Source of the DNA: Candidatus Hermodarchaeota archaeon
Lineage (GTDB): Archaea > Asgardarchaeota > Hermodarchaeia > Hermodarchaeales > Hermodarchaeaceae
Assembly (NCBI GenBank): GCA_016840065.1
Contig: JAEOTB010000047.1
Span: 1-24,659, forward strand
Length of the DNA stretch: 24,659 nucleotides
Direction of reading: 5' to 3'
Part shown: one piece after another, positions 2,504 to 24,659 of the stretch
How the letters are laid out: each line of letters opens with the position of its first letter
Numbering within the stretch: the first letter of the stretch is position 1
Notes under the pieces: model-generated
Database searches by the model: none
What the model was told of the DNA's origin: nothing
The model's input: only the letters and a program-made list of their open reading frames with translations
Translations under genes and position numbers: made by a program

Positions 2504-4159
2504 CTAGTATCCATGGATTGGTTTTCCGCAACCGCAGTATCTTTGGCTTAGTGGTGTTTGTGCACCACAGAAAGGACATCTTCCAGCAATGCTGCTCCAA
2601 AACATGTTAAGATTGTTTATTGCTTCTGTATCGAGTAATCCAGCTCTGACAAATTGTTTAATACCATGTTCGATGTGGGCCTTTGAGTCCACGTGAGTTA
2701 GGGCGTTGAGTGCAAGCGCCTGTTGGTCAATGTTGATACTGAAATGGGGATCACTGATTTCGGAGCGTACAAGTTGTTGTAGACTTGTATTGAGAGTAGT
2801 ATCAAAGACCTCAACAACAGGATTATTCGGTGAAATTGGATTTATCTTAAGGGGAGATACCACACCGTAGCGGATGGATCCTTCAAGGAGTTTAACCAGA
2901 AATATTGGAACTAGAACCCGCGTTATTGGTGCAGGTCCTTGAAGCTCTACGGCTGGCGTGCTTAGCGCTGAGAATTGTTGGTGCTGCTGAATAATGGTGG
3001 TCTCTATTGACTTTACAGCTTGTTTTAACTCCCAATAGCACTTAATAATCCGTTCTCGAAGGGAATCTAATTCAATTAATTCAGGGGATGTCTCAACAGC
3101 ATCTGTTGTTTCCTTCAATAAATCAGCTGGTGTAGTGACGGGAGCTTCTGGAGGTGTTGGGGCTGTCCCTGAAGTTTGGCTTCGGCTCCAAAGCCAGCGT
3201 TGCTCTGCCGCCTGTAATTGTGAGAAACTCGCATTTAATTCAGTTAGTCCTTGTTGTAGAAGGTTAGAGAATTCATTGGAGGTTGTCTGCAATCTAACAA
3301 GCTGATTCTTTACTTCCACAAGGACACGTTCTAGCTCTGAGGGTTTGGCTCGTATATCACCAATTAAGCGGCGACATTGTTCGGCTGAAAACTTGAGTGT
3401 CTCCTCTATGCTTCCTAGAATCTGAGACACCTTCTGAGAAATTTGCTGCTTCTCTCCTTCTAATTGTTGTGTCGCCTCATCTACAACAGTGTCAGTTGAA
3501 GCTGTTGCTTTAGACGTCGGAGTAGCTTGTCCAAGTGTAGAGCTGTGCAGAGCTTGGCGCGTCTCATCAAGGAGACGTAGTTGCTTCTCTGAATACCCAT
3601 CGATACGAATCAGAGTTTCCTTTATTTCTTTCATTGATTTTTCTATTCGAGTGAGTTCGACTCGAAAGGTGCTACCCATATCATGAATCTCTGCTGTAGA
3701 AAGAATGGAATCAGCTATCTCTTCATTTCCAGGTTCTGCAAGAGAGGGGTTGACGAGTTGTTGTATACGCCCAACAATACCCGGATGAATAACATTACGG
3801 AGAATTATCGACTCTTCCGGTTTTGTTTGAATTCTCTCTAAAATTCCTCTAAGGATATCGGGCACATTTTCTAATTTGTGTACAATACGGAGTCTTGTTT
3901 GAATCTCAGAATGAGTGGGTGGTGCTGCATGCCTGATCTCCTTGTCTGATGAACTAATTCCACTAATTAACAAGCTTTGACCTGGTGTGGCGTGAACCAA
4001 GAAGAAAGGAAGATACATGTGAGAGATATACGAGAAGCGTGTATTCTTTGGGACTTGCCTGTGTAGCAATCTCAGGGCTGCTACTAATTCTGTTCCCATC
4101 GAATGCTCTAAACCTAGTGTATTAGTTTGAAGAAACGAAGCTACCTTTGTTACGAACAT
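2504..4159 (-). CDS. hypothetical coiled-coil protein with C-terminal zinc ribbon
   Basis: 551-aa ORF with a long heptad-like central region, globular-looking ends (YLPFFLV; LVPIFLV..RYGVVSP) and terminal CPFCG-x8-CGCG. Confidence 0.8.
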   Translation of the reverse strand: MFVTKVASFLQTNTLGLEHSMGTELVAALRLLHRQVPKNTRFSYISHMYLPFFLVHATPGQSLLISGISSSDKEIRHAAPPTHSEIQTRLRIVHKLENVPDILRGILERIQTKPEESIILRNVIHPGIVGRIQQLVNPSLAEPGNEEIADSILSTAEIHDMGSTFRVELTRIEKSMKEIKETLIRIDGYSEKQLRLLDETRQALHSSTLGQATPTSKATASTDTVVDEATQQLEGEKQQISQKVSQILGSIEETLKFSAEQCRRLIGDIRAKPSELERVLVEVKNQLVRLQTTSNEFSNLLQQGLTELNASFSQLQAAEQRWLWSRSQTSGTAPTPPEAPVTTPADLLKETTDAVETSPELIELDSLRERIIKCYWELKQAVKSIETTIIQQHQQFSALSTPAVELQGPAPITRVLVPIFLVKLLEGSIRYGVVSPLKINPISPNNPVVEVFDTTLNTSLQQLVRSEISDPHFSINIDQQALALNALTHVDSKAHIEHGIKQFVRAGLLDTEAINNLNMFWSSIAGRCPFCGAQTPLSQRYCGCGKPIHGY

Positions 4160-13756: not shown

Positions 13757-16700
13757 TTACTTTGACGTAGTTCCTCCTGGTTTCTTGTCTCCTTTAAGCA
13801 ACCCTAGCTGACTCTTACATTTTGGACACTGATTTTCTTTGAATATACATAGGTTGAAGCACTTTGTGTGAAAGTGTCCGCCGCAATGACGACACTTGAT
13901 AATTGATTCAAGAGGGTAGGTAATCGCGAATACCATTCCGCAGCCAAGGCAGGGAGAACGTTTCTCCCTTTCCCGTAGTTGTTCCTTGTGATGCTCCATT
14001 ATTTGTTCATAGCATTTAATGGCTTTTTGTCGGGCCCCTGCTTTCATGTAAGCGAATCCTAAATTCACCAGGTAGTTTATATCTCCTGGATTGACTTCGA
14101 CTAGTTGACTGTAACACTTGGCTGCTTCTTCCCAATTACCAGCATTACAATGACATTCTGCCTCCAGTTCTAATAACAAGACAGAATCTCTTGAGCTTTT
14201 TTCACGAACTTGGTGTATTACTTCTGAAGCGCGTACCCACTCTTCCTGAGGGTAGGTTTCACCAGAGACTTGGTCCTCGGGTAGTGATTGTCCAGTAATG
14301 GGTAGCTTTGTTTTCATTTTTTCCTTCACCCATTGCTCAAACATTGCACCTCGGACTAAACTTGGACCAGATTGAATAATTTCTTGGAGTACACCTCTGA
14401 TTCTTCCCCTGTGAACTGAAGAACTCTGTAACGCTGAAACTAGAGGCTTGATTATTCTTGGTCCCAGTTTTGTAATGGTAGTTCTATCCATCATGATTAA
14501 AATTCCAAATACCTTATTTACAATCGGAGGTTTGGGTATATCCTCACTGGTGATGGTTTTGAGAAGTTCTTCGGCTGCGAGTTGCCCCATTGAAGTAATT
14601 GTACTTGTCAAGGAATCCCTAACTCTAGCAACATAATAACTTTGAAATTGGGTTTCAAACCCCCTGACCAGATAAGAGACGAGTGCCTTTGCAGCTCCTC
14701 TGGTCTTGATCCTTCCAAGAATCTGAATAGCAGAAATGACTGGAGAGTAATTTCTTTCATTGTTAATGTATTCTCTAAGAGGCTCGACTGCTCCATCGCC
14801 AAGCCTTTCCAGCTCTGACCACTTTCTCATCGCGATAAACAGTGAGGCTAGTTTAGCAGGGTCTGAAGGCGTCCAACCACGCCGAATAAGGAGATTGTAT
14901 GCAGCGATTCGAACTTGATTGTGTTTTGTTTCTTCGAAAAGTTTCTCAAGCGGCTTAATTATCTGCTGATTTCCTATTCTATGAAATGTTTCTATGTACA
15001 TTAACTGAACTTGATGATGTGTTTCCCGCTGAAATTCTTGTAATAGAACTTTGAATACCTTGGTACTGCCGAATGACTCAAGGGATTTTATAGCAGCAAT
15101 CCTTACTTGGTGATATTCTGTTTCTTTCAGAATCTTGATGAGTGGTTGGACAGCTTTGCGATTCCCAAGTCCCGATAAAAGCTGAATAATCGATATTTGA
15201 ATCGAGCTGTTTGATATTGTCTGGAGTCCTTGCAGAAGACCATTGAATGCCTTTGGTCCACCAATTTCTCTAAGAGCCTTAGCCGCTGCTATTCTAGATT
15301 GCGGATGAGCTCCATTCAAAAGAATATCTATTAGCTGCGGAACTGCTTGTTTATTTCTAATCCTTTGCAATGCAGATATCACTGCTATCTGAACTTGTTG
15401 GTTCGATTCAACTTGGAGACTTTTGATAAGTCCTCTAAAAGCAGATATTCCTCCAAAGGTTCCAATCGCGACGGCAGCTGCTTTACGCACATTTACACTG
15501 TTGTGCTGGTGATTGTCTGGTTCTTTTACTAGAATCTCGATGAGTGGCTTAATAGCCCGGCGGTCTCCCGAGGATTGGAGCAGCCGAATAATCTCTAGTT
15601 GAACTTGATGGTTCTTTGAATTTTTTAGAACACGACTAAGGGGAGTGATTCCTAGGCTAATTCTGTGTTTTCTAAGGGTCTGCAAAATATGCTGTTGATG
15701 TAGATTCTTCTCTAGTTGTAGGCATTTGAGAAGAATCTTAAACGCTTCATCGCCTCCAATGTTACTGATTCCAGTAATGGCTGCCCTACATGCGTTTATG
15801 CTACCCTGATTATTGGCTTCTTTGATAAAGAAGTCAGCGAGAGGGCGTAAAAATTGTTTATCACTAGTTCTTGCTAGAACAGTCACTACTGAAGTTTGAA
15901 CCTGTGCATTTTTCTCAAGTTTTAGACTCTGAACCAAAGCATTGTATGCTTCAACCCCTCCTATTGCTCCAAGAGCAGCGGCTGCTGCATTACGAACATT
16001 GAATTCCTGGTCACGAATTAGGGCTTCAACTAGTGAGGTTAATGCTTGGCTTTCAGTATTCTGACTCATATAATTGATTGCTAGGATTCGGATAGCAGGA
16101 GCAGGGTCTTGTATTGCCTTAATTAGAATCTTGGTTGTCTGAGGTGCCTTCAGACGTACCAGATGTTGAGCGGCGTTCTGGCGTAACTGCTGGATATCGC
16201 TGTGCATAAGAATGTGGGCGAAGGCTTCTAAGGCTGCTAAGAGGAGTGTTTCACTCTGTGATTCTGCTTTAACTGGAGTGATCATCTGAGCTACGGAAAA
16301 CCTGAATTGCTGATCAGGTTCGTTTTTTAGAACATGAGCTATTGCACTTTCTACACGTGGATTATCTGTAGGTAATAGAAGCCGAAGCGCTGCATTCCTA
16401 GTTGTTGTATCATTATCAAACAAGAATTGTTGAATCAGAAGGTCTGTTGCGCGCCCTCCCATCGATTGCAGCCCTACACCAGCTAGCCGCTGGACCTCTC
16501 CCGAATCATCTCGAAGCGCTTCAAATAGAGCATCGATACTTCGGGGATCCTGGATTTCCTGGAGCATTTTCGCTGCCTTTGTTCTAATTGACAAGTCAGC
16601 ATCTTTAAGCAGGAATATCAGAGCATCAACCACACGAGGATAGACCACCCCCTCTTCACCTGCTTGATGCTCATACCAATGCTCGAAAACCTCAACCGCC

Positions 16701-17305
16701 TTCCTCCTAACTTTTGGGTGTTGATCCGTTAGCCATGGAACAAGCAACTCTACAATCCTTTCATCCCTGATTTTCCCTAGGGATGAAATGGCAATCCATC
16801 GAACACGGAAATCCTCGTCTCGTCTCAGGCGAAAAAGCGAGTTTGCTACTAGGGCTTCACGGAGTTCTCCCAAGCTTTGGGCTGCTGCTCCCCTGACTCG
16901 CCACTGCTCATCAAGGAGGGCCTTTGTGAGAGGAGTTATAGAATTCTTCCCAAACTTCCTCAAGGCGATAGCAATTCTAGATCGTAAAATACTAGAAGGG
17001 TCCCTTATTACTAGCTGTGCTAGAGCTTCGAAAATCCTCTTCTCCTGGAATCCTCCAAGGGCTAGAGCTGCTTCCATACGCACCTCATAATTCCCATCGC
17101 TCAGGGCCTTAAGCAACGGCTCTATAACCGATTTATCGTGTCTTACCCCTAGCACATAAGCTGCAGCCCTTCTGTGATCAAGTTCAGAATGAGTGGCTAA
17201 CACTTTGACAAGAGCCTGGATTGTGCTGTTCTCATAGATTCTGAAACCGAAGTTGTCGACTTCTTCGGCAGGGGTTCCACCTAGCCAGACACGCCGCATA
17301 CTCAA
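13757..17305 (-). CDS. large PBS-lyase HEAT-repeat protein with TPR pair and C-terminal C4HC3 RING-like zinc finger
   Basis: More than 20 repeats of L..AL.D....VR..AA..LG. TPRs (GNWEEAAKCYSQLVEVNPGD; YLVNLGFAYMKAG...AIKCYE). C-x2-C-x15-C-x2-C-x4-H-x2-C-x10-C-x2-C at 13817-13951. GGAGGT SD 7 nt before the TTG. Confidence 0.9.
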   Translation of the reverse strand: MSMRRVWLGGTPAEEVDNFGFRIYENSTIQALVKVLATHSELDHRRAAAYVLGVRHDKSVIEPLLKALSDGNYEVRMEAALALGGFQEKRIFEALAQLVIRDPSSILRSRIAIALRKFGKNSITPLTKALLDEQWRVRGAAAQSLGELREALVANSLFRLRRDEDFRVRWIAISSLGKIRDERIVELLVPWLTDQHPKVRRKAVEVFEHWYEHQAGEEGVVYPRVVDALIFLLKDADLSIRTKAAKMLQEIQDPRSIDALFEALRDDSGEVQRLAGVGLQSMGGRATDLLIQQFLFDNDTTTRNAALRLLLPTDNPRVESAIAHVLKNEPDQQFRFSVAQMITPVKAESQSETLLLAALEAFAHILMHSDIQQLRQNAAQHLVRLKAPQTTKILIKAIQDPAPAIRILAINYMSQNTESQALTSLVEALIRDQEFNVRNAAAAALGAIGGVEAYNALVQSLKLEKNAQVQTSVVTVLARTSDKQFLRPLADFFIKEANNQGSINACRAAITGISNIGGDEAFKILLKCLQLEKNLHQQHILQTLRKHRISLGITPLSRVLKNSKNHQVQLEIIRLLQSSGDRRAIKPLIEILVKEPDNHQHNSVNVRKAAAVAIGTFGGISAFRGLIKSLQVESNQQVQIAVISALQRIRNKQAVPQLIDILLNGAHPQSRIAAAKALREIGGPKAFNGLLQGLQTISNSSIQISIIQLLSGLGNRKAVQPLIKILKETEYHQVRIAAIKSLESFGSTKVFKVLLQEFQRETHHQVQLMYIETFHRIGNQQIIKPLEKLFEETKHNQVRIAAYNLLIRRGWTPSDPAKLASLFIAMRKWSELERLGDGAVEPLREYINNERNYSPVISAIQILGRIKTRGAAKALVSYLVRGFETQFQSYYVARVRDSLTSTITSMGQLAAEELLKTITSEDIPKPPIVNKVFGILIMMDRTTITKLGPRIIKPLVSALQSSSVHRGRIRGVLQEIIQSGPSLVRGAMFEQWVKEKMKTKLPITGQSLPEDQVSGETYPQEEWVRASEVIHQVREKSSRDSVLLLELEAECHCNAGNWEEAAKCYSQLVEVNPGDINYLVNLGFAYMKAGARQKAIKCYEQIMEHHKEQLREREKRSPCLGCGMVFAITYPLESIIKCRHCGGHFHTKCFNLCIFKENQCPKCKSQLGLLKGDKKPGGTTSK

Positions 17306-17690
17306 TATTCAGACCTCCCATAGACCACAAGCACATTCGTAGCAAAAGAGTTGCGGTTTCGAAGCATGAGAAGACAGGCAGTGATTCTTGACCAAAGTTT
17401 TAGCAGCTTGACCATTCTTACTTCCCACTATGACATTCACATAAATGAAGACAGAATAGAATATAAAAGATTAGATTTAGCTGAAGACCAGCCTGCCTAT
17501 TATTCACTTGGATGCTGGGGTGCCCCCGTTTTTATAGAACCTGATAGATAATATTATTATTACGCGGAACCGTTTCCTTGAAACGCGGGATGTAACTGGA
17601 TGAATACCACTCATCGGAAATCTAGGGTCCGAGAAATATTCATCACTCAATAGGCGAAAATCCTCTCAAGGAAAATGAGGGAAACTGGTA

Positions 17691-18491
17691 ATGCTTCAAA
17701 CAGGTGTGTACTATCTTTGGTTGCCTAAAGCCTACCCCAGCAGAAGTTTTGGTCAGTCAATCACACAGCACGTTTTTGTAGGCTCTTATCAAAGGTTTGA
17801 TAACTCGGATCAGAAAGCCTTGGCAAAAATGCTAGTAAATATCCAACGCGTACCTTGGGGTTTTGCTTGCAGGTTTCAACCAAATTTTCCGCAGCTTCCA
17901 TCAAAGAGTATAACTATTGATAATCAACTGGAGACCGTTAAAGAGTGTGTAAAGAGGCACGCTCAATACCACGAATTTTCACTCGCTCTTCGCCCCCTAG
18001 AGCTGCTCCAATTCTGGTCAGAAGAACTTCGTAATCTTATCGATCAATACCTCGAAGTTGAAGAGCTGGTCTATCATGGAGGATTGAAACGGAAATGTAA
18101 ATGGCTAGTGAAATTCGTTGAGGAAAGGAACATTGACCTTGTAAATGAAGGGGTTCAATTTAGAGCCAATAAGACTGGTCTGAGCCAGTACCGTCGATAT
18201 GGGTCTCCTCAACTCTACCCCTTTGGAGGCCCACAAATCGAGTTAATATTATCAAAGGAATTCCAAAACCCAGAAATTGAATATGTGCTCCAGCGCCTTT
18301 CTGTAACTCCAATACCAGTTGTACGTCACCACAGGAGAAGGTCAGAAGAGGAAGGCCGTTTGCGAGTACAAGCACCGGATATCGTCTTATTCTATCCTGT
18401 CTTTCAAGCGCTAATTCCGGGTTTAGAAGAATATGTCAACGAGTTAGGGCTCAGAAAAATGATAGATGAAAGGTGGAGGATGTATCATTGA
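17691..18491 (+). CDS. hypothetical protein, gene 1 of the MoxR-vWA operon
   Basis: 266-aa ORF with GAGG SD. Its stop overlaps the next start (TTGA). No family recognised. Confidence 0.78.
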   Translation: MLQTGVYYLWLPKAYPSRSFGQSITQHVFVGSYQRFDNSDQKALAKMLVNIQRVPWGFACRFQPNFPQLPSKSITIDNQLETVKECVKRHAQYHEFSLALRPLELLQFWSEELRNLIDQYLEVEELVYHGGLKRKCKWLVKFVEERNIDLVNEGVQFRANKTGLSQYRRYGSPQLYPFGGPQIELILSKEFQNPEIEYVLQRLSVTPIPVVRHHRRRSEEEGRLRVQAPDIVLFYPVFQALIPGLEEYVNELGLRKMIDERWRMYH

Positions 18492-19681
18492 CAATCGATC
18501 TAAAACCTGCGCTCCTAACTTCAAAGGATTTTGTAAAAGACCAGCAACTCCTTATTGAGGCCGATTTAAGCATTCATCCCTTTCAAGGAAACATCGTTTG
18601 CTGGCAGGAATCTTGGTCAAAGGAACTGAAGCCTCTACGAATATTCTCATTCTCTAGAGAATCTCATCTCCTCTCCTCTGTTTTACCTGGCGATTTAATA
18701 CTGTGCAACTTCCAGAGCCTCTATAACTCTCTGGGGGGCAAAGTAGTCAAGATAACTGAAAAAATTGAGACACTCGACCAGCTCACTAAGCTTCTTGAGG
18801 AAAATTCATCCCTCAGAATCCTTGCCTGGGATAATGGACTAGAACCTGATTCGCCACTTTTTCTTGCCCGCGACTTCATGAATGCTAGAAAGGAAATCGA
18901 ATCAGGTAAAGCCCTTTCGTCTACGTTCTTGTTTAATTTCCTGAACCTATTCAGCCGAATAACTCAGCTGGACCGCTCTCAGATTCTCTTCCATGGATTG
19001 AAAATTAAATTAATCGATAAAATTGTCTCTTCCTTGAATTCTGAGTTTATTGAAAAGCTGGTTAACCTCCTAGACGAGTATGACCTCTCTACGAAAACCC
19101 CTCTCCTCTATCTATTAGACATCGTTGCTGGACCTTTAAGGAAAACAGCACCCACATATCGACCTAGCCTTGACATTGGCAGTCGCCTGGAAAAGGCTTT
19201 CACCACTCGTAAAGGGGAAAAGCGGGTCAAACGGCTTCGAAGTATATTCATCAGTGATTTCAAATCCTGGCTAGTGAAACATAGTACACGGGATTTGGAT
19301 TTGAAACACCTCACTGAGGAGTATAATGCCCTCAAGGAAACAATTCTCGAAATGAAAACAGGCGAAGTCGAACAGGCAGTGATTTTCGTTCGAGGAAAAA
19401 TCAAGAGAGAGTATCACATCACCTCTCTTCGTGAAAGTTCCCTAGGAAGGAGGCTCTTAATGATAACCAAAGTGTCTGACCGGAAGATTTGGGTCGACCA
19501 AGAAACATTCAACCTAATCAAGGCTGCTGTGAAGCGGCTAAAAATGACTCTAGTAGTCAAACCATACCCCAAACCGAAAAGAAAACGAGGTAGTAAACAA
19601 TGCCAGAAGGAGAACCAGGCTCAACCCGAGCAAAAGGATCAAAGAGAAGGAAATCAAGAAGGTCCGAACCGGATTTCTTAG
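18488..19681 (+). CDS. hypothetical protein, gene 2 of the MoxR-vWA operon
   Basis: About 397 aa. GGAGG at 18475-18479 favours TTG 18488, which overlaps the upstream TGA. Basic C-terminal tail. No family recognised. Confidence 0.8.
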   Translation: MTIDLKPALLTSKDFVKDQQLLIEADLSIHPFQGNIVCWQESWSKELKPLRIFSFSRESHLLSSVLPGDLILCNFQSLYNSLGGKVVKITEKIETLDQLTKLLEENSSLRILAWDNGLEPDSPLFLARDFMNARKEIESGKALSSTFLFNFLNLFSRITQLDRSQILFHGLKIKLIDKIVSSLNSEFIEKLVNLLDEYDLSTKTPLLYLLDIVAGPLRKTAPTYRPSLDIGSRLEKAFTTRKGEKRVKRLRSIFISDFKSWLVKHSTRDLDLKHLTEEYNALKETILEMKTGEVEQAVIFVRGKIKREYHITSLRESSLGRRLLMITKVSDRKIWVDQETFNLIKAAVKRLKMTLVVKPYPKPKRKRGSKQCQKENQAQPEQKDQREGNQEGPNRIS

Positions 19682-20568
19682 AACTATTCGAAAGCGCTAC
19701 AATTACAAGAGAAAAAGCGCATAGTGATAACCTAGTCCTAGAAGGGCAGTACGAGGTGGCTTACGAGGCGATAATGGATGCATACAATGCTGAACTCTAC
19801 GCGGGTCTTATTGGCCCCGTAGGTGTGGGAAAAACAATCCTCTGTAGACGGATAGCTGAGGATCTTAAGCGAGGTTTCTATTGGGTCACTTTCAGTGATC
19901 TCATCCGTCCCTCTACTCTCATTGGGTCCTTTGACCCTACTCTAGTGTTCAAGATTGGTTACTCACCTGAATCTTTCGTCCCAGGACCCTTCACTCTTGC
20001 CTGCTTGGGGGGTAGCGTTTTTCTAGCAAACGAGTTGAACCGAGGGGATGAATATGTACTGAACTCTCTGCTTGACGCTCTTGAGGAAAGACGTTTGTAC
20101 ATACCTCAGCTACGAACCTGGGTGAAGGTCCATAAAGACTTCTTCTTCATCGCTGCTATGAACCCGCTAGAATTCAAAGGAACGCGAGATCTACCACAAG
20201 CTGTTAAAGACCGAATCAAGGTCTGGTGCCGTCTAGTGTATCCCTCCCGTAAGATTGAAGAAAAAATCGTCCGGTCCCATTGCCCTGAGGCGGAGCTATC
20301 TTCAACCGCTTTGGACCTTATCCTTACCCTTATTGAGAAATGTCGTTCCTCCCATCAAATCGAGAAACCACCAAGTATACGCACAAGTATAGGAATCGCT
20401 AAAATGCTTGCAGCAAGAAAGAAGCGCTTCAAACTAGAGGATGCACCAAATGAGCTGATAGCAGAAGTTGCATCCTTGGTACTCCCTGAGTCAATCGAGG
20501 TCCTGCCTGGTCAAGACCCGAATAACATCGTGAGAAACCTGTGCGTTGAGGTGCTCGGGTTTGGGTAG
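19600..20568 (+). CDS. MoxR-type (CoxD-like) AAA+ ATPase
   Basis: Walker A GPVGVGKT, LIGSFDP..FVPGP, Walker B variant VFLANELNR, NSLLDALEER, FIAAMNP, Arg finger LPQAVKDR and sensor-2 PPSIR. Confidence 0.93.
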   Translation: MPEGEPGSTRAKGSKRRKSRRSEPDFLELFESATITREKAHSDNLVLEGQYEVAYEAIMDAYNAELYAGLIGPVGVGKTILCRRIAEDLKRGFYWVTFSDLIRPSTLIGSFDPTLVFKIGYSPESFVPGPFTLACLGGSVFLANELNRGDEYVLNSLLDALEERRLYIPQLRTWVKVHKDFFFIAAMNPLEFKGTRDLPQAVKDRIKVWCRLVYPSRKIEEKIVRSHCPEAELSSTALDLILTLIEKCRSSHQIEKPPSIRTSIGIAKMLAARKKRFKLEDAPNELIAEVASLVLPESIEVLPGQDPNNIVRNLCVEVLGFG

Positions 20569-23143
20569 CATCGACCTGGAAAACCTCTTCGAATCCCTCC
20601 CGCCCCCAATCTTTGCAGCGCAGTTCTGTGACTTGATGCGTAACCAACCTGATATTGAGAGTGCTGTGAGTACCAGACAGGCCATAGCTATCACTAAGCT
20701 CTTAATGGCAACTTGCTTCCGTAAAGGAAACCTTAACCTGCTTCCCGAAGACTACATTCGTGCAGCAATTATCTCAACAGTACCCGAGCTACAAGAAGTC
20801 GCCGAACAAGTCGTTCTCAACATCTTGTTCCCTCGCCTTAGAGAAATCGAGGAAGATACCATCACCCAATTTGGAGGTAAAGGTAAAGGAAGCCATCCAG
20901 GACAGATATCCGCAGATGCGACTGTTCCAGAGAAGATGGAGAAGGATCTGTCAACAGATGTCCTGGAGGGTCTCTCTGATTTTCTTAGTGAGGTAGCACC
21001 CGATTTTGACTCAAGAGGAGTACAACCCTCAGGAGGACAATCTCAAGATGAACAGACTGATGAGCTAGACTTCTTTTTTCTCGCTAATGGAGAGTGGAAG
21101 GCTGGCCGACAACCCTTCAAAAGTTTGCTAGATACCCTAGATAGCCAAACTGATATTCTTTACAGACAAATTCAGAACCTTCCCCAGTTAACCCAGTACG
21201 TGAAGCAACGGATGATGCCCTCGATAAACCAGCTCTCAAGGACAGACCTTGCCGCAATTCCCCACGCAGATGTATCCAACGAAATAATGCAGAAAACGAA
21301 AAACCCTGTTGAACAAGCTCTAGCCCAGCACGCGGTAAAACAAACTAGTGGATTCAAGGAAACCTCTCAACAGATACTTTCTGATAGTCCTGTAGATTAT
21401 ACTAGGATGGCTCGCGCCCTTTCCGAATCAGGAAGCATAACCAAGGAAACATTCCAGGAAATGGTAGAAACTGCGGCTCAACAGGCTAAAACCAGCTCAG
21501 AAATCTACAACATCATTAAGACGGCAGAGACCCTAACCCCAAAAATGAAAGAGAAACTGTTTGACATGATTGGGAAAGAGCCTTCCCTTACCAAGGCACT
21601 AGAGATAGCTTCTTCCCTAGAGAAACTTCCCTCAATTACTGACCCCATTCTTATGGACTTCCTCAAACAAACTCTCTCCAAACCTGAAACTGCTTCGAAA
21701 ATCTCCTTCAGAACCTTACCCTATATACCCTTTTACAGCAAAGATATCGAGAATGCTGTGGAAAGGGCCTTCCAAAAGGAAATGAGTAAATTACAGGAAG
21801 CTAAGCGCCCTGGAGATTTCAGCGAACTTTACGATGAAATAATGGACACACGAGACCGAACACAGAATGCTTATTATCAAAAAGTCCTCAAAGATCTTCA
21901 AAACCAAACTGGTAATGAGTGGCTCCAGTCAATCACCTCCCCAAAGAGTTTCTTAAACGTGGGACACCAACTGGCCCGACAGAAGCTAGAGTTCGATGAA
22001 GAGAAAGTGATGTCTCATGGATTAGAGATTGGCTGCAACAAGGAAGAGATTAACGAGTTCCTGTATTCCAGTTTTGAGAAATTCCTCAAGGCAATCAAAG
22101 AGGGCACCAGAGATGCTCGGGGGTACACAACCGCCCTTAAGCGATTAAAGCTCAAGCCTGACCAGATGCAACAAGCAATGGATACAGCTTTTCAAAGTGA
22201 GAACAGGGAGGCACTTGCTGCTTTTGCTAGCCAAGACCTCGCTACCATGACACAACAAGCTGCAAAGAGCGGGAATTCGCAAAAACTAGATTTACTCCTT
22301 TCTTCCCTCTCTGCGGGATCTGGAGAGGACCTCCTCAGGCAATGGTTCATACACAGGGACAGGATTCCAAGTCAAGCTCGGGAAAAACTTAGGCGCGTTC
22401 TAAGAAAGATTGTTATTGCTACAGCAATGGATATGGCCCGCATGAGGCTTGGCTCTGCAGAAGACGGGCTCATGGTAGCGAACACGATTCGACCCTACCG
22501 AGACGGAGACGAGTTTGACCAAATCGACATTGAAGGAACCCTTGATGGGATAATTTCAATGGGTAAGGATCTCACTCAGATTGTGCCAGAAGATTTGATG
22601 ATGCATGAACGAAAGAGGGGAAGAGTAGCTCTACTCGTTCTCCTCGATGTGTCAGGTTCTATGAGCGCTGTAGAGCGACTCTCCTACTGTGCCCTTTTGG
22701 TCACCCTGCTTATTTCCCGTCTAAAAGAACAGGAAATTGCCATCGCTCTATTCGAATCAAATACACACGTGATTATGGAGTTTGAGGAAGAAAAACCGGA
22801 AATAGAAAAAATTATCGATCAACTCCTTGAAATTAGAGCTAGGGGTGGTACCGTTGTTAACCGAGCACTTGCTTGGGCATTAAAACAATTCCAGAAGGTC
22901 GAAGCGGAAAAAACCTACTTTGTGGCCTTGAGTGATTTCATACTTTCTAGAGAAGTTGGTACTGATGCGTCATTTCATGGAATCTTGAAATTCAAACCAA
23001 AGACATACCTTATCGCACCTGCTAAGAATATTCAAGGAGCAGAAATCAAGATGTGGCAGAAAGCTCTGAACGCTTCTGCTGTAACTCTCAAATCAGAAAG
23101 GGACATCATCGATATTGTGTGCAAGATAATATCCAGTCGCTAG
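20561..23143 (+). CDS. large vWA (MIDAS) domain protein, MoxR partner
   Basis: C-terminal vWA: IRPYRDGD..IDIEGTL, LLDVSGSM, GGT and LSDF. GAGGTG SD at 20548-20553 favours TTG 20561, which overlaps the MoxR 3' end. Confidence 0.9.
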   Translation: MGSIDLENLFESLPPPIFAAQFCDLMRNQPDIESAVSTRQAIAITKLLMATCFRKGNLNLLPEDYIRAAIISTVPELQEVAEQVVLNILFPRLREIEEDTITQFGGKGKGSHPGQISADATVPEKMEKDLSTDVLEGLSDFLSEVAPDFDSRGVQPSGGQSQDEQTDELDFFFLANGEWKAGRQPFKSLLDTLDSQTDILYRQIQNLPQLTQYVKQRMMPSINQLSRTDLAAIPHADVSNEIMQKTKNPVEQALAQHAVKQTSGFKETSQQILSDSPVDYTRMARALSESGSITKETFQEMVETAAQQAKTSSEIYNIIKTAETLTPKMKEKLFDMIGKEPSLTKALEIASSLEKLPSITDPILMDFLKQTLSKPETASKISFRTLPYIPFYSKDIENAVERAFQKEMSKLQEAKRPGDFSELYDEIMDTRDRTQNAYYQKVLKDLQNQTGNEWLQSITSPKSFLNVGHQLARQKLEFDEEKVMSHGLEIGCNKEEINEFLYSSFEKFLKAIKEGTRDARGYTTALKRLKLKPDQMQQAMDTAFQSENREALAAFASQDLATMTQQAAKSGNSQKLDLLLSSLSAGSGEDLLRQWFIHRDRIPSQAREKLRRVLRKIVIATAMDMARMRLGSAEDGLMVANTIRPYRDGDEFDQIDIEGTLDGIISMGKDLTQIVPEDLMMHERKRGRVALLVLLDVSGSMSAVERLSYCALLVTLLISRLKEQEIAIALFESNTHVIMEFEEEKPEIEKIIDQLLEIRARGGTVVNRALAWALKQFQKVEAEKTYFVALSDFILSREVGTDASFHGILKFKPKTYLIAPAKNIQGAEIKMWQKALNASAVTLKSERDIIDIVCKIISSR

Positions 23144-23245: not shown

Positions 23246-23800
23246 ATGAGAATAGCTCAAGAGCCCACACCAGCCGAAGTAGCAATTCTTGGACTAGTAA
23301 ACGAAGGCGAAACACATGGCTACGGCATCAACCAAACCATCGAGGAAAGAGGCATGCACATCTGGACCGCGATAGGCTTCTCATCAATTTATGCAATCCT
23401 CCAACGACTAGAGAAAGCTAGGCTCATCAGAGGCCGTCGTGACAAAACGGAGAGACTGCCCGCGCGAAAACTCTACCGAATCACCAGCGAAGGAAGAAAA
23501 GCACTACAAAGGGCACTCAAGCTGTATCTATCAGAACCTGACCGCCCTCGCTTCCGTGTTGACCTAGGGGTTGCGAACCTCTATCTACTCCCAAAAGAGG
23601 AAGCTATCAAATGTTTAGAGGCTTACTGTGCTAATCTTCGTGATAAAATCAACGCCCTCGACAGACGGGTAGAGGAATTGAAACCACTGGATTTCATAAC
23701 TGAGGCAGTCTTTGACCACGCGCTAGGCCATCGTCATGCTGAACTCGGCTGGGCGGAGACCCTACTTAAGAAATACCGAAAACAACCAACTGGGGTTTGA
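23246..23800 (+). CDS. PadR-family transcriptional regulator (long subfamily)
   Basis: ILGLV-x3-THGYGI, SSIYAILQRLEKARLI, RKLYRITSEGR and a helical C-terminus ending AELGWAE. Confidence 0.93.
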   Translation: MRIAQEPTPAEVAILGLVNEGETHGYGINQTIEERGMHIWTAIGFSSIYAILQRLEKARLIRGRRDKTERLPARKLYRITSEGRKALQRALKLYLSEPDRPRFRVDLGVANLYLLPKEEAIKCLEAYCANLRDKINALDRRVEELKPLDFITEAVFDHALGHRHAELGWAETLLKKYRKQPTGV

Positions 23801-23802
23801 GA

Positions 23803-24659
23803 ATGAGTAATCGATACATGATTGAGGATTTCAACTTCTTCGGAGGAATACATTGTGAAACCTGTGCAGTACGCAAAGTATTCCAATACAATGACCTCCC
23901 TGTATCTGAAGAGATGCTCTTTGGTCTAGCTGGAGGAATCGGGTTCATCTATTGGTATATGAAGATGATGCCTGCCCCTCTGGTTGGTGGAAGGGGCGGA
24001 GGCCGATACTTCATCGAAAACATCGGAAAGCGAACAGGAGCAGTAATTCAGCCTCAAAGGACTACAAGCGCGAAACGGGGTCATACACGACTCGTAGAAA
24101 GATTAAGCGCTGGGCAACCGACTGTGATCTATGCGGATATGGCTTACCTGCCTTACATGGGAGTCCCAGAGGATGCACACTTTGGGCAACATGTCATTGT
24201 TATCTATGGTATCGATGAAGCTGACAATAAGGTGTATATCTCTGACCGGGGAAATCGAGGTGTTACAATCACAGTGGAGGAGTTGAAGCAAGCTAGGGGT
24301 TCCAAGTTTCCTCCATGGCCGCCTCAGCATGCCTTATTTGATATCCAGCTGCCAAAGAAATTACATATAACACCAACTGTGTTGAAGCAGGCGCTTAGAC
24401 AATGTGTGGATGGGATGATAAATCCGCCAATAAGCAACATCGGGTTGAAGGGGATGCAGAAGTGGGCAAAGCTCCTCCTCAAATGGCCTGAGATGTTCCC
24501 GGGGCGTAGGCTTTGGGACTGTCTTATGCAAGGCTTCATCTACATCGAGACTGGAGGTACTGGAGGAAGCTCTATGCGCCCAATGTTTACGAGATTTCTT
24601 GCAGAAGCAAGGGATATCCTTAGAGAGCCAGAGATTGATTCCGTGATTGAGAAGTATAA
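23803..24659 (+). CDS. BtrH N-terminal / DUF4872-like papain-fold protein (partial, runs off the window; absent from the ORF track)
   Basis: ATG 23803 is open to the edge: MSNRYMIEDFNFFGGIHCETCA...SEEMLFGLAGGIGFIYW...DMAYLPY...HFGQHVIVIYGIDE...ISDR...IETGGTGG. Cys/His/Asp triad candidates are present. Confidence 0.88.
   Translation, partial: MSNRYMIEDFNFFGGIHCETCAVRKVFQYNDLPVSEEMLFGLAGGIGFIYWYMKMMPAPLVGGRGGGRYFIENIGKRTGAVIQPQRTTSAKRGHTRLVERLSAGQPTVIYADMAYLPYMGVPEDAHFGQHVIVIYGIDEADNKVYISDRGNRGVTITVEELKQARGSKFPPWPPQHALFDIQLPKKLHITPTVLKQALRQCVDGMINPPISNIGLKGMQKWAKLLLKWPEMFPGRRLWDCLMQGFIYIETGGTGGSSMRPMFTRFLAEARDILREPEIDSVIEKY

Follow-up and report, generated by a model that had tools for sequence, protein, structure and literature searches.

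A conserved but rare MoxR-vWA gene cassette of Asgard archaea with a predicted two-part partner protein

Gene content of the locus

The window, by which is meant the whole 24,659-nt stretch of Asgard-archaeal DNA analysed here, carries between positions 13757 and 23143 five genes arranged head-to-head about an AT-rich spacer of 385 bp (17306–17690). The minus strand encodes a HEAT/TPR protein of 1182 aa (13757–17305, starting at TTG 17305 or ATG 17299). The plus strand encodes O1 (17691–18491, 266 aa, ATG 17691) and O2 (18488–19681, 397 aa, TTG 18488), which are taken here as the putative first and second subunits of a partner protein, followed by a MoxR-class AAA+ ATPase of the AAA_5 type (19600–20568, 322 aa, ATG 19600) and a giant vWA adaptor of approximately 860 aa (20561–23143, TTG 20561). 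The product predicted from the TTG start of O2 is identical in length to the protein-database entry. The spacer, presumed to be the promoter region of the cassette, contains the TATA-like runs that had been described in an earlier note on this DNA, as had the divergent 1182-aa gene. A promoter scan of the spacer used a bacterial-type model and is uninformative for an archaeal host, and no Rfam family was found in the window, spacer included.

Successive plus-strand genes overlap by 4 nt (O1/O2), 82 nt (O2/MoxR) and 8 nt (MoxR/vWA), and each has its own ribosome-binding motif upstream of the start codon, namely GAGGG at 9 nt for O1, GGTGGAGG at 7 nt for O2, GAGGT at 10 nt for MoxR and GAGGTG at 7 nt for vWA. 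These coordinates and motifs agree with the earlier note, and its reading of the four genes as a coupled operon is borne out by the overlaps, the Shine-Dalgarno-like motifs and the gene order kept at other loci. A copy from the same genus retains the 82-nt overlap, including the extended tail of O2, and comparison with this copy gave dN/dS values of 0.037 for MoxR and 0.056 for vWA. Together, the overlaps, the motifs and the MoxR/vWA dN/dS of 0.04–0.06 show the four genes to be a unit that is, judged from its sequence, translationally coupled and under purifying selection.

The ATPase belongs to the MoxR class of AAA+ proteins, scoring 73.6 bits against AAA_5 of Pfam (cut-off 22; 2e-20) and 55 bits against AAA_3. 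Its Walker A motif reads GPVGVGKT, and the sensor-1 Asn, R205 and the sensor-2 R261 are retained in the alignment. Walker B has Asn-Glu, not Asp-Glu, in all seven aligned members, a substitution that could make the ATPase slow, or a switch instead of a motor. A basic N-terminal extension of the protein is encoded inside the 82-nt overlap with O2. The best PDB match (E 1.9e-26) is to midasin/Rea1 and sums over six midasin AAA domains, for which reason a midasin reading was rejected; the best single midasin domain scored 29.2 bits, below the 39.3 bits of the ordinary MoxR 2r44, and the vWA profile gave no match to the midasin MIDAS. In PADLOC, both MoxR and vWA gave weak, partial matches to unrelated models only.

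The vWA protein consists of an AAA-lid-like N-terminal bundle, an acidic Gly/Gln linker, approximately 450 aa of helices and a C-terminal CoxE-type vWA domain. Its N-terminus matches the lid of MoxR (hhalign 75%, E 2.5e-5), and its residues 658–799 match VWA_2 (39.5 bits) and VWA_CoxE (35.4 bits), both exceeding the cut-off. The MIDAS residues D701, S703, S705 and D797 are invariant across 23 homologs, with T769 nearly so; the protein is a CoxE-type vWA adaptor with the metal site DxSxS...T...D. There are at least 168 relatives of this protein, nearly all in Asgard MAGs. The vWA tree splits into three deep clades, one for each of the gene layouts described below, with a support of 1.0 for that of the window's layout.

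The minus-strand protein had been named HEAT-TPR-RING in the earlier note. The HEAT and TPR parts of this name stand, with HEAT_2 matched at 3e-96 and TPR matches also present in Pfam. The RING part is not confirmed, the C-terminal finger being a Cys/His pattern (C-x2-C-x15-C-x2-C-x4-H-x2-C-x10-C-x2-C) whose spacing fits C4HC3 and whose scores lie below the cut-offs (zf-RING_2 14.3, PHD 12.3 and Prok-RING_1 12.3 bits; 10–15 bits for RING, PHD, FYVE and Prok-RING overall, the cut-offs being 24–29).

O1, O2 and the three layouts of the family

Neither O1 nor O2 matched a family in Pfam, NCBIfam, PADLOC or PHROG, and neither has a P-loop. The O1 family is small, with 8 representative clusters in a set of 1.84 billion proteins, and that of O2 has 8 proteins in a set of 5.8 billion. 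In the AF2 model of O1 (pLDDT 80.8), a small beta-barrel (residues 5–63) is followed by helices (74–145) and an alpha/beta part (155–263), while that of O2 (pLDDT 80.6) has an OB-like barrel (20–112), a helical bundle (120–295) and a conserved alpha/beta C-domain (297–362), after which comes a disordered basic tail. Fold searches of both models (Foldseek against PDB, a wide VIA-align search and the BFVD viral library) gave no match exceeding Z 6.6 or better than E 0.01. The best PDB match of O1 reached only Z 4.6, which leaves its fold without assignment, and that of O2 reached Z 6.6. The small N-terminal barrels of the two models gave weak OB matches (IF1/eIF1A, RPA, POT1 and Stn1), and the C-domain of O2 bears a weak resemblance to DUF61 and to the N-domain of UvsW. 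A permissive Pfam scan of this C-domain returned ENCP4 alone (E 0.05), and the ESM Atlas held no usable match for O2 or for X784, a Lokiarchaeial relative described below. O1 was also compared with the N-terminal half of X784, a Rad50-like protein and a Heimdall WD40 protein as possible counterparts, and these comparisons gave no signal.

The order O1-O2-MoxR-vWA is the same in every related locus that retains its upstream DNA, as seen in Jordarchaeum (L016), in Heimdall (L017/L106/L107) and in a metagenome (L108); a further copy (G001) is partial and cut by the contig end. The MoxR proteins of the Jord and Heimdall copies are 70–74% identical to that of the window and the MoxR of G001 is 94% identical. 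O2 evolves fast, having 30% identity where MoxR retains 70%. In all loci O1 lies directly upstream of O2 where the two are not fused, and they are joined as one protein in P0050, in P0051 (matched at 98.2 and 99.1%) and in a 923-aa protein of G294 that sits upstream of a MoxR gene. Because of these fusions, O1 and O2 are shown to constitute the two halves of a single predicted partner protein. Using the O2 profile, full-length O2 was found in 3 of 400 sampled Asgard genomes, besides the contig-cut copy of G001 and the fusion of G294, and the layout is known from only approximately six independent loci, mostly on short contigs.

The earlier note had suggested that the two proteins are dedicated to this MoxR-vWA pair, and had named gene neighbourhood as a check. 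O1 and O2 do co-occur with the pair at other loci, and the conserved order together with the fusions sustains the suggestion. O1 and O2 match none of the described models of defence or ternary systems, and no paper describing the cassette was found. On this comparative evidence, the four genes form a genuine cassette that is conserved, though rare, in Asgard archaea.

The genes around the cassette vary by genome, being a histidine kinase and a hydantoinase, a DUF998 protein and a corrinoid protein, or the HEAT and a PadR gene. No HEAT/finger homolog was found at any of 86 related loci and no ortholog of the HEAT gene in 40 relatives, three genomes of the same genus among them. The link between the HEAT gene and the cassette proposed in the earlier note is therefore not maintained, and, going by its distribution, the HEAT/TPR/finger gene is an unrelated neighbour outside the cassette.

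We define an Asgard MoxR-vWA family by a giant vWA protein of the A1 alignment, its cognate MoxR and an adjacent protein with the O2 C-domain; the window cassette has all of these, with the O2 module in its third component. The whole of O2 aligns with X784, a Lokiarchaeial SWIM-like protein of which it covers the C-terminal ~310 aa (residues 478–791, 291 columns; hhalign 96.6%, E 6e-10), and the last ~95 aa of O2, in the region of the C-domain, match X180, a 172–250-aa protein of a Rad50-like layout, at 83–96%. These profile alignments show that O2 shares homology with the module at the C-terminus of the former protein (layout A) and, by its C-domain, with the latter (layout C). In view of this homology, the label of orphan used in the earlier note is too strong for O2. 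From the kinship of O2 to both proteins, it follows that the window carries the rarest of three layouts.

Layout A, the Lokiarchaeial MoxR-vWA-SWIM operon, has a homologous MoxR (43% identity in the copy aligned), including the Asn-Glu Walker B, and a homologous giant vWA protein (25–28% identity) that likewise has the lid-like N-terminus and the MIDAS site. It differs in that its third component lies downstream of MoxR-vWA, whereas that of the window lies upstream and is split into O1 and O2, and in that its N-terminal half, bearing a SWIM-like finger (HxC...CxH), has no detectable counterpart of O1. It also differs in distribution, being confined to one GTDB family, where 117 of 135 genomes have it, in synteny and with housekeeping genes around it, whereas the layout of the window is rare and scattered; the names Thor-, Hod-, Odin- and Hermodarchaeota in the NCBI titles of some layout A MAGs are submitters' labels. 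We found no paper describing this operon. Layout A and that of the window were mutually exclusive in all five genomes tested, which was set aside as a sign of equivalent function, being confounded by phylogeny. Layout C has the gene order small ORF/Rad50-like/X180/MoxR/vWA in four of five sampled loci. Its MoxR proteins are the closest relatives outside the layout of the window (54–62% identity), its partner genes likewise lie 5' of MoxR and its small X180 protein has the O2 C-domain; unlike in the window, a Rad50/SMC-like ATPase (AAA_23) occupies the place of O1 and the N-terminal part of O2.

Relation to described MoxR-vWA systems

The cassette shares with CbbQ-CbbO, NorQ-NorD and CoxD-CoxE a tight operon coupling and a gene pair in which an AAA_5 MoxR precedes a long helical protein that ends in a CoxE-type vWA/MIDAS domain. 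It differs from them by its additional two-part partner and by the lid-like module with which its vWA protein begins. In agreement with the earlier note, none of the usual MoxR client genes (CO dehydrogenase, NO reductase, Rubisco or chelatase H) was found adjoining it.

A second comparison is with the E. coli yehL-yehM-yehP-yehQ cluster, whose YehL represents a MoxR ATPase subfamily and whose YehQ is a SWIM protein. There, too, a single coupled operon combines MoxR and vWA with large accessory proteins. By hhalign, YehL aligns with MoxR (96.7%) and YehP with the pre-vWA-plus-vWA part of the adaptor (79%). YehM and YehQ gave probabilities of less than 1% against the N-terminal part of the vWA protein, X784, O1 and O2, in a comparison of limited sensitivity with a single E. 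coli sequence. The resemblance to the Yeh cluster is one of analogy, not of membership. The cassette represents a known kind of machine, an AAA+ motor with a metal-site adaptor, here in a variant with a two-part partner of unassigned fold.

A model of the cassette and its alternatives

The best explanation, to which we give a probability of about 0.6, is that 17691–23143 is a self-contained cassette, the rarest layout of the O2-module MoxR-vWA family, which would remodel O1-O2 and to which the HEAT gene is unrelated. By analogy with CbbQ-CbbO, NorQ-NorD and CoxD-CoxE, the MoxR ring with its MIDAS adaptor most likely remodels or loads the O1-O2 complex. A MoxR hexamer would carry one vWA adaptor, whose lid-like N-terminus and long helical arm would dock on it, and the MIDAS site would grip an acidic residue, either in O1-O2 itself or in a target that the two OB-like barrels hold. 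The C-domain of O2 may serve for docking in each of the three layouts, and ATP hydrolysis would lead to the O1-O2 complex being remodelled, assembled or released.

The alternative that we consider least unlikely is a DNA or chromatin machine corresponding to the Rad50-like layout, in which the OB-like barrels and basic tails of O1-O2 would bind nucleic acid and MoxR-vWA would load or unload the complex. The occurrence of the nearest MoxR relatives in Rad50-like operons, the SWIM-like finger of layout A, the OB matches of the N-terminal barrels and the resemblance of the O2 C-domain to UvsW and DUF61 all point this way, although the structural matches it draws on lie at Z 3.5–5.8, under the level of fold assignment, OB barrels also bind proteins and the Rad50-like protein is not similar to O1. 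Lys/Arg-rich tails occur at the end of O2 and the beginning of MoxR, but are not kept outside the genus, and the FEN1, AlkD-like and radical SAM genes present in the window are not conserved as neighbours of the cassette.

A conflict (defence) system, with MoxR-vWA as switch and O1-O2 as the sensing third component, would also suit a patchy distribution and a fast-evolving O2, and is judged somewhat less probable again. In the ternary conflict systems (VMAP, iSTAND, FtsH and beta-propeller), a MoxR-vWA core is joined by a system-specific third component, and the pairing of a constant C-terminal domain with variable N-terminal parts seen here parallels their VMAP-C/VMAP-M logic (Kaur, Burroughs, Iyer, and Aravind, 2020; PMC7159879). 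The spread of the cassette across classes, with 70–74% MoxR identity among Hermod, Jord and Heimdall genomes, a gene for a 1009-aa WD40 protein after vWA in a Heimdall locus, and a score of 29.8 bits for the MoxR of the G294 locus against bpMoxR (cut-off 27 bits) are consistent with such a role. The MoxR of the window itself scored 17.8 bits (E 0.002) against bpMoxR. In the described ternary systems the vWA domain is N-terminal and effectors follow it (PMC7159879), whereas in the window it is C-terminal with nothing beyond, and the cassette has no effector domain; no VMAP-C, iSTAND or effector model of Pfam or PADLOC matched O1, O2 or vWA, and a PADLOC run suggested in the earlier note gave no defence model for O1 or O2. 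The syntenic position of sister layout A amid housekeeping genes also argues against conflict, and the window holds no mobile-element or defence genes. Among IMG/VR viral contigs there was no relative of the O2 or vWA families, barring three weak generic vWA-domain matches.

It is improbable that the pair is a chaperone for metal-centre or complex maturation like CbbQO, NorQD and CoxDE, with its client encoded elsewhere and O1-O2 as an accessory. The nearest named families of the ATPase are indeed GvpN, CbbQ and NorQ, and a CoxE-type vWA domain likewise ends a long helical protein in CbbO and NorD (PMC9976466). All of these families were matched far under their cut-offs (72.5 bits against 266.8 for GvpN), which places the protein outside the CbbQ/GvpN/NorQ subfamilies, and the PDB matches to CbbQ and NorQ scored 33.6 and 23.4 bits; moreover, no client gene lies close to any locus, where the sole invariant neighbours are O2-module proteins.

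Most improbable by far is the five-gene system of the earlier note, with recognition and tagging of targets by the HEAT/TPR/RING protein ahead of their remodelling by MoxR-vWA: the shared 385-bp spacer, a C4HC3 spacing compatible with a cross-brace finger and the ubiquitin-system parts encoded by Asgard archaea speak for it, but the idea falls with the lack of co-occurrence of the HEAT gene with the cassette elsewhere, on which the earlier note had itself made it depend, as well as with the sub-threshold finger and the changing flanks, so that the tempting story of an unfoldase coupled with a HEAT-RING E3 ligase in a prokaryote has no support here.

To our knowledge, MoxR-vWA pairs are widespread and their clients are known in just a handful of cases. 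In the remodelling cassette preferred here, the operon itself would encode the client or partner, with the fusions and the conserved order binding O1-O2 to the motor, and since partner and motor are encoded together, O1-O2/MoxR-vWA is a tractable test case. The structure predictions for O1 and O2 are confident and yield no assignable fold, each family has fewer than ten known members, and the link of O2 to the SWIM-like and Rad50-like layouts unites three loci as one family, nearly all of whose occurrences are in Asgard archaea. Asgard archaea are the lineage from which eukaryotes arose. It is a tentative proposal, and one we think unlikely, that the O2-module MoxR-vWA systems are Asgard-specific ATP-driven loaders or unloaders of nucleic-acid-binding assemblies, with SWIM-like, Rad50-like or O1-O2 proteins as partners. 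If this were true, a two-OB-barrel complex of new fold would stand in for the Rad50-like ATPase in the cassette of the window, which would then be a hitherto unrecognised machine for handling chromosomes or RNA in the archaea most closely related to eukaryotes.

A translationally coupled four-gene unit

The window comprises one entire contig of 24.7 kb from a MAG that is 84% complete. On its + strand lie genes for two family-less proteins, O1 (17691–18491) and O2 (18488–19681; 397 aa, with a start agreeing with the public protein collection), followed by a MoxR ATPase (19600–20568) and a giant vWA adaptor (20561–23143; 858 aa in that collection, with a start near the one read here). These genes overlap by 4, 82 and 8 nt, a GGAGG-like motif precedes each start codon and an AT-rich spacer of 385 bp separates O1 from a divergent HEAT/TPR gene (13757–17305, − strand; 1182 aa). 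Re-reading of the sequence found the coordinates, overlaps and spacer of the earlier note to be correct. The window is archaeal and carries a FEN1 gene, with a 551-aa ORF lacking a Pfam family (2504–4159, − strand) between it and a pyridine nucleotide-disulphide oxidoreductase gene. Beyond the vWA gene, 23246–24657 carries a PadR-family regulator gene and, overlapping it by 4 nt, the gene of a BtrH_N/DUF4872 (peptidase C39-like) protein that extends past the contig end; the neighbourhood of this pair with the cassette is not conserved.

Comparison with a same-genus copy (G001, contig C235) gave 94% identity and a dN/dS of 0.037 for MoxR, and 90% and 0.056 for the vWA protein. The 82-nt O2/MoxR overlap (19600–19681) is purine-rich, and each of its two reading frames encodes a low-complexity tail, basic or acidic. 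It is retained together with the extended tail of O2 in G001, where this tail is preserved at a contig edge. The tail has a dN/dS of 0.42 and a dS of 0.28. An overlap of this type is absent from the Jordarchaeum and Heimdall loci. The four genes are shown to be a coupled, selected and conserved unit.

The HEAT gene does not share in this conservation, and the link to the cassette drawn in the earlier note was not borne out. No HEAT/finger homolog was present among 80 loci around vWA relatives or in additional loci taken from genomes and metagenomes. A search of 40 relatives, including three same-genus genomes, with the C-terminal 303 aa of the protein, its less repetitive part, returned TPR-level matches only and no ortholog. 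The flanks of the cassette differ from genome to genome, being HEAT and PadR genes in the window, DUF998, corrinoid protein and URO-D-like genes in Jordarchaeum, and histidine kinase and hydantoinase genes in the Heimdall MAG. As for the C-terminal "RING" once proposed, a C4HC3 Cys/His pattern is indeed present, but RING, PHD and FYVE scores are all sub-threshold.

The MoxR ATPase and its vWA adaptor

The ATPase is an AAA_5 protein of the MoxR class. Its nearest named families are GvpN, CbbQ and NorQ, yet all scores fall far under their cut-offs. Its Walker B motif reads Asn-Glu rather than Asp-Glu (N144-E145; 20029–20034), as in 7/7 aligned MoxRs, which cover the three gene layouts described below and a small-pair type; the ATPase site is atypical throughout the family, the other ATPase motifs being intact in the alignment. 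The first ~60 aa of the vWA protein (residues ~24–63; 20561–20760) resemble the sensor-2 lid of the MoxR encoded alongside (hhalign 75%, E 2.5e-5), and are followed by an acidic Gly/Gln linker, a long helical stretch and a C-terminal CoxE-type vWA domain with an invariant MIDAS site. This recalls the AAA-linker-vWA layout of ChlD/BchD, although the cassette's protein is without the AAA core.

O1, O2 and three gene layouts

O1 and O2 have no match in Pfam, NCBIfam, PADLOC or PHROGs. Homologs of both occur in the same order immediately upstream of a MoxR-vWA pair in Jordarchaeum (L016), in the Heimdall MAG (L017/L106, with its metagenome copy L107) and on a metagenome contig (L108), and the tie between the two orphans and the MoxR-vWA pair proposed in the earlier note therefore holds. 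Identity to the window falls from MoxR (70–71%) through vWA (47–51%) and O1 (38–41%) to O2 (30–31%). Both families are small, with 8 O2 proteins among 5.8 billion and 8 representative O1 clusters among 1.84 billion. Three natural O1-O2 fusions were identified, namely P0051 (588 aa; residues 6–242 align with O1 at 98.2% and 268–560 with O2 at 99.1%), P0050 (911 aa) and a 923-aa protein in genome G294 directly upstream of a MoxR. Together with the translational coupling, these fusions argue that O1 and O2 function as a single complex. In the Heimdall MAG (MAG_147) the vWA gene is followed, with slight overlap, by that of a 1009-aa multi-WD40 beta-propeller protein (L017:12510–15539) absent from the window and Jordarchaeum.

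Confident AF2 models were obtained for O2 (pLDDT 80.6, pTM 0.72) and O1 (pLDDT 80.8, pTM 0.70). O2 is predicted to consist of an OB-like barrel (20–112), a helical bundle (120–295), an alpha/beta C-domain (297–362) and a disordered basic tail, and O1 of a small barrel together with helices and an alpha/beta region. None of the PDB or viral matches was strong enough to assign a fold (best Z 6.6 for O2, 4.6 for O1); the barrels weakly match IF1/eIF1A, RPA, Stn1 and POT1, and the O2 C-domain DUF61 and UvsW-N.

In the genome collection, at least 168 proteins are related to the giant vWA protein. Nearly all of them are from Asgard MAGs, as is every close homolog of the cassette. The neighbourhoods of these relatives sort into three layouts: A, MoxR(313)-vWA(829)-X784, where X784 bears a SWIM-like finger (HxC...CxH); B, the O1-O2-MoxR-vWA order of the window; and C, a small ORF, a Rad50-like ATPase (~850), the small protein X180, MoxR and vWA. 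Layout A lies among housekeeping genes (class I tRNA synthetase, PFL-like enzyme, DNA methylase, CoaBC). With a deeper O2 alignment, the whole of O2 aligns with X784 residues 478–791 (hhalign 96.6%, E 6e-10, 291 columns), and its last ~95–120 aa match X180 (83–96%). By these alignments O2 is shown to be homologous to the third component of each sister layout, and its module, chiefly the C-domain, is therefore the constant third element in A, B and C. No counterpart of O1 was detectable.

The vWA tree contains three deep clades corresponding to the layouts (support 1.0 for B), and layout B MoxRs are nearer to C (54–62% identity) than to A (43%). Among 400 sampled Asgard genomes, all genomes compared being MAGs and most layout B contigs short, X784 occurs in 117/135 genomes of one GTDB family and 0/265 elsewhere, and full-length O2 in three; in addition, G001 has an incomplete copy and G294 the fused version. 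B/C-type MoxRs occur in 28 genomes, five of them with layout B; of five other such loci inspected, from four genomes, four have layout C. Layouts A and C were found together in the same genomes and neither was seen in the five layout B genomes, which we do not read as functional replacement because the groups are phylogenetically separate.

Related arrangements were also observed. Many genomes of GTDB family f9 with the layout A operon carry a second, divergent X784 paralog (~780–800 aa) matching only X784 residues ~346–780 (E 1e-35 to 1e-47), which suggests two paralogous systems per genome. Same-genus genomes hold a separate small trio of a ~320-aa protein, a 282–334-aa MoxR (30–34% identity) and a 304-aa vWA protein (L134, G001:C43, 5355–8401; L135, G003:C62, 30–3090), not detected in the genome to which the window belongs; in G001 the N-terminal, SWIM-bearing part of X784 is matched by a 199-aa ORF at 3094–3693 (E 1.8e-8). 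Besides layout C, a closed Asgard genome of 6.0 Mb has a second MoxR (54% identity) and a 734-aa vWA protein (L137, G150:C1:4377335–4380500), with no O2-module gene nearby. A complete layout A locus in a MAG titled "Candidatus Nanopelagicaceae bacterium" (L075, DATKTW010000114.1) is probably a mis-binned Asgard contig.

Relation to known systems and possible role

The cassette is a MoxR-vWA system, and in that respect of a known kind. It does not, however, belong to the CGN-type chaperones (CbbQ/GvpN/NorQ), the Yeh-type clusters, the published ternary conflict systems or midasin. The O1/O2 partners and gene layout have no match among described operons, as the earlier note had supposed, and no paper describing the cassette was found.

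Several features weakly hint at a role linked to nucleic acids: the sister layouts have Rad50-like and SWIM-like partners, the O1 and O2 models contain OB-like barrels, and basic tails are present. It is also possible that the cassette is a conflict system, given its patchy distribution, the fast evolution of its third component and the adjoining WD40 protein in the Heimdall MAG, but it contains no effector domain, matched no defence model, including those of PADLOC for O1 and O2, and has no viral link, while layout A behaves as core-like.

For the cassette as a MoxR-vWA system, the MIDAS site and ATPase motifs are shown to be intact at the level of sequence, and a mechanism may be inferred from the CbbQO, NorQD and CoxDE paradigm (PMC9976466; PMC7159879). 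A MoxR hexamer would carry one vWA adaptor, whose MIDAS site would capture an acidic residue, either in the O1-O2 complex itself or in its cargo. The docking piece common to the layouts may be the C-domain of O2, and ATP hydrolysis would then remodel, load or release the O1-O2 complex.
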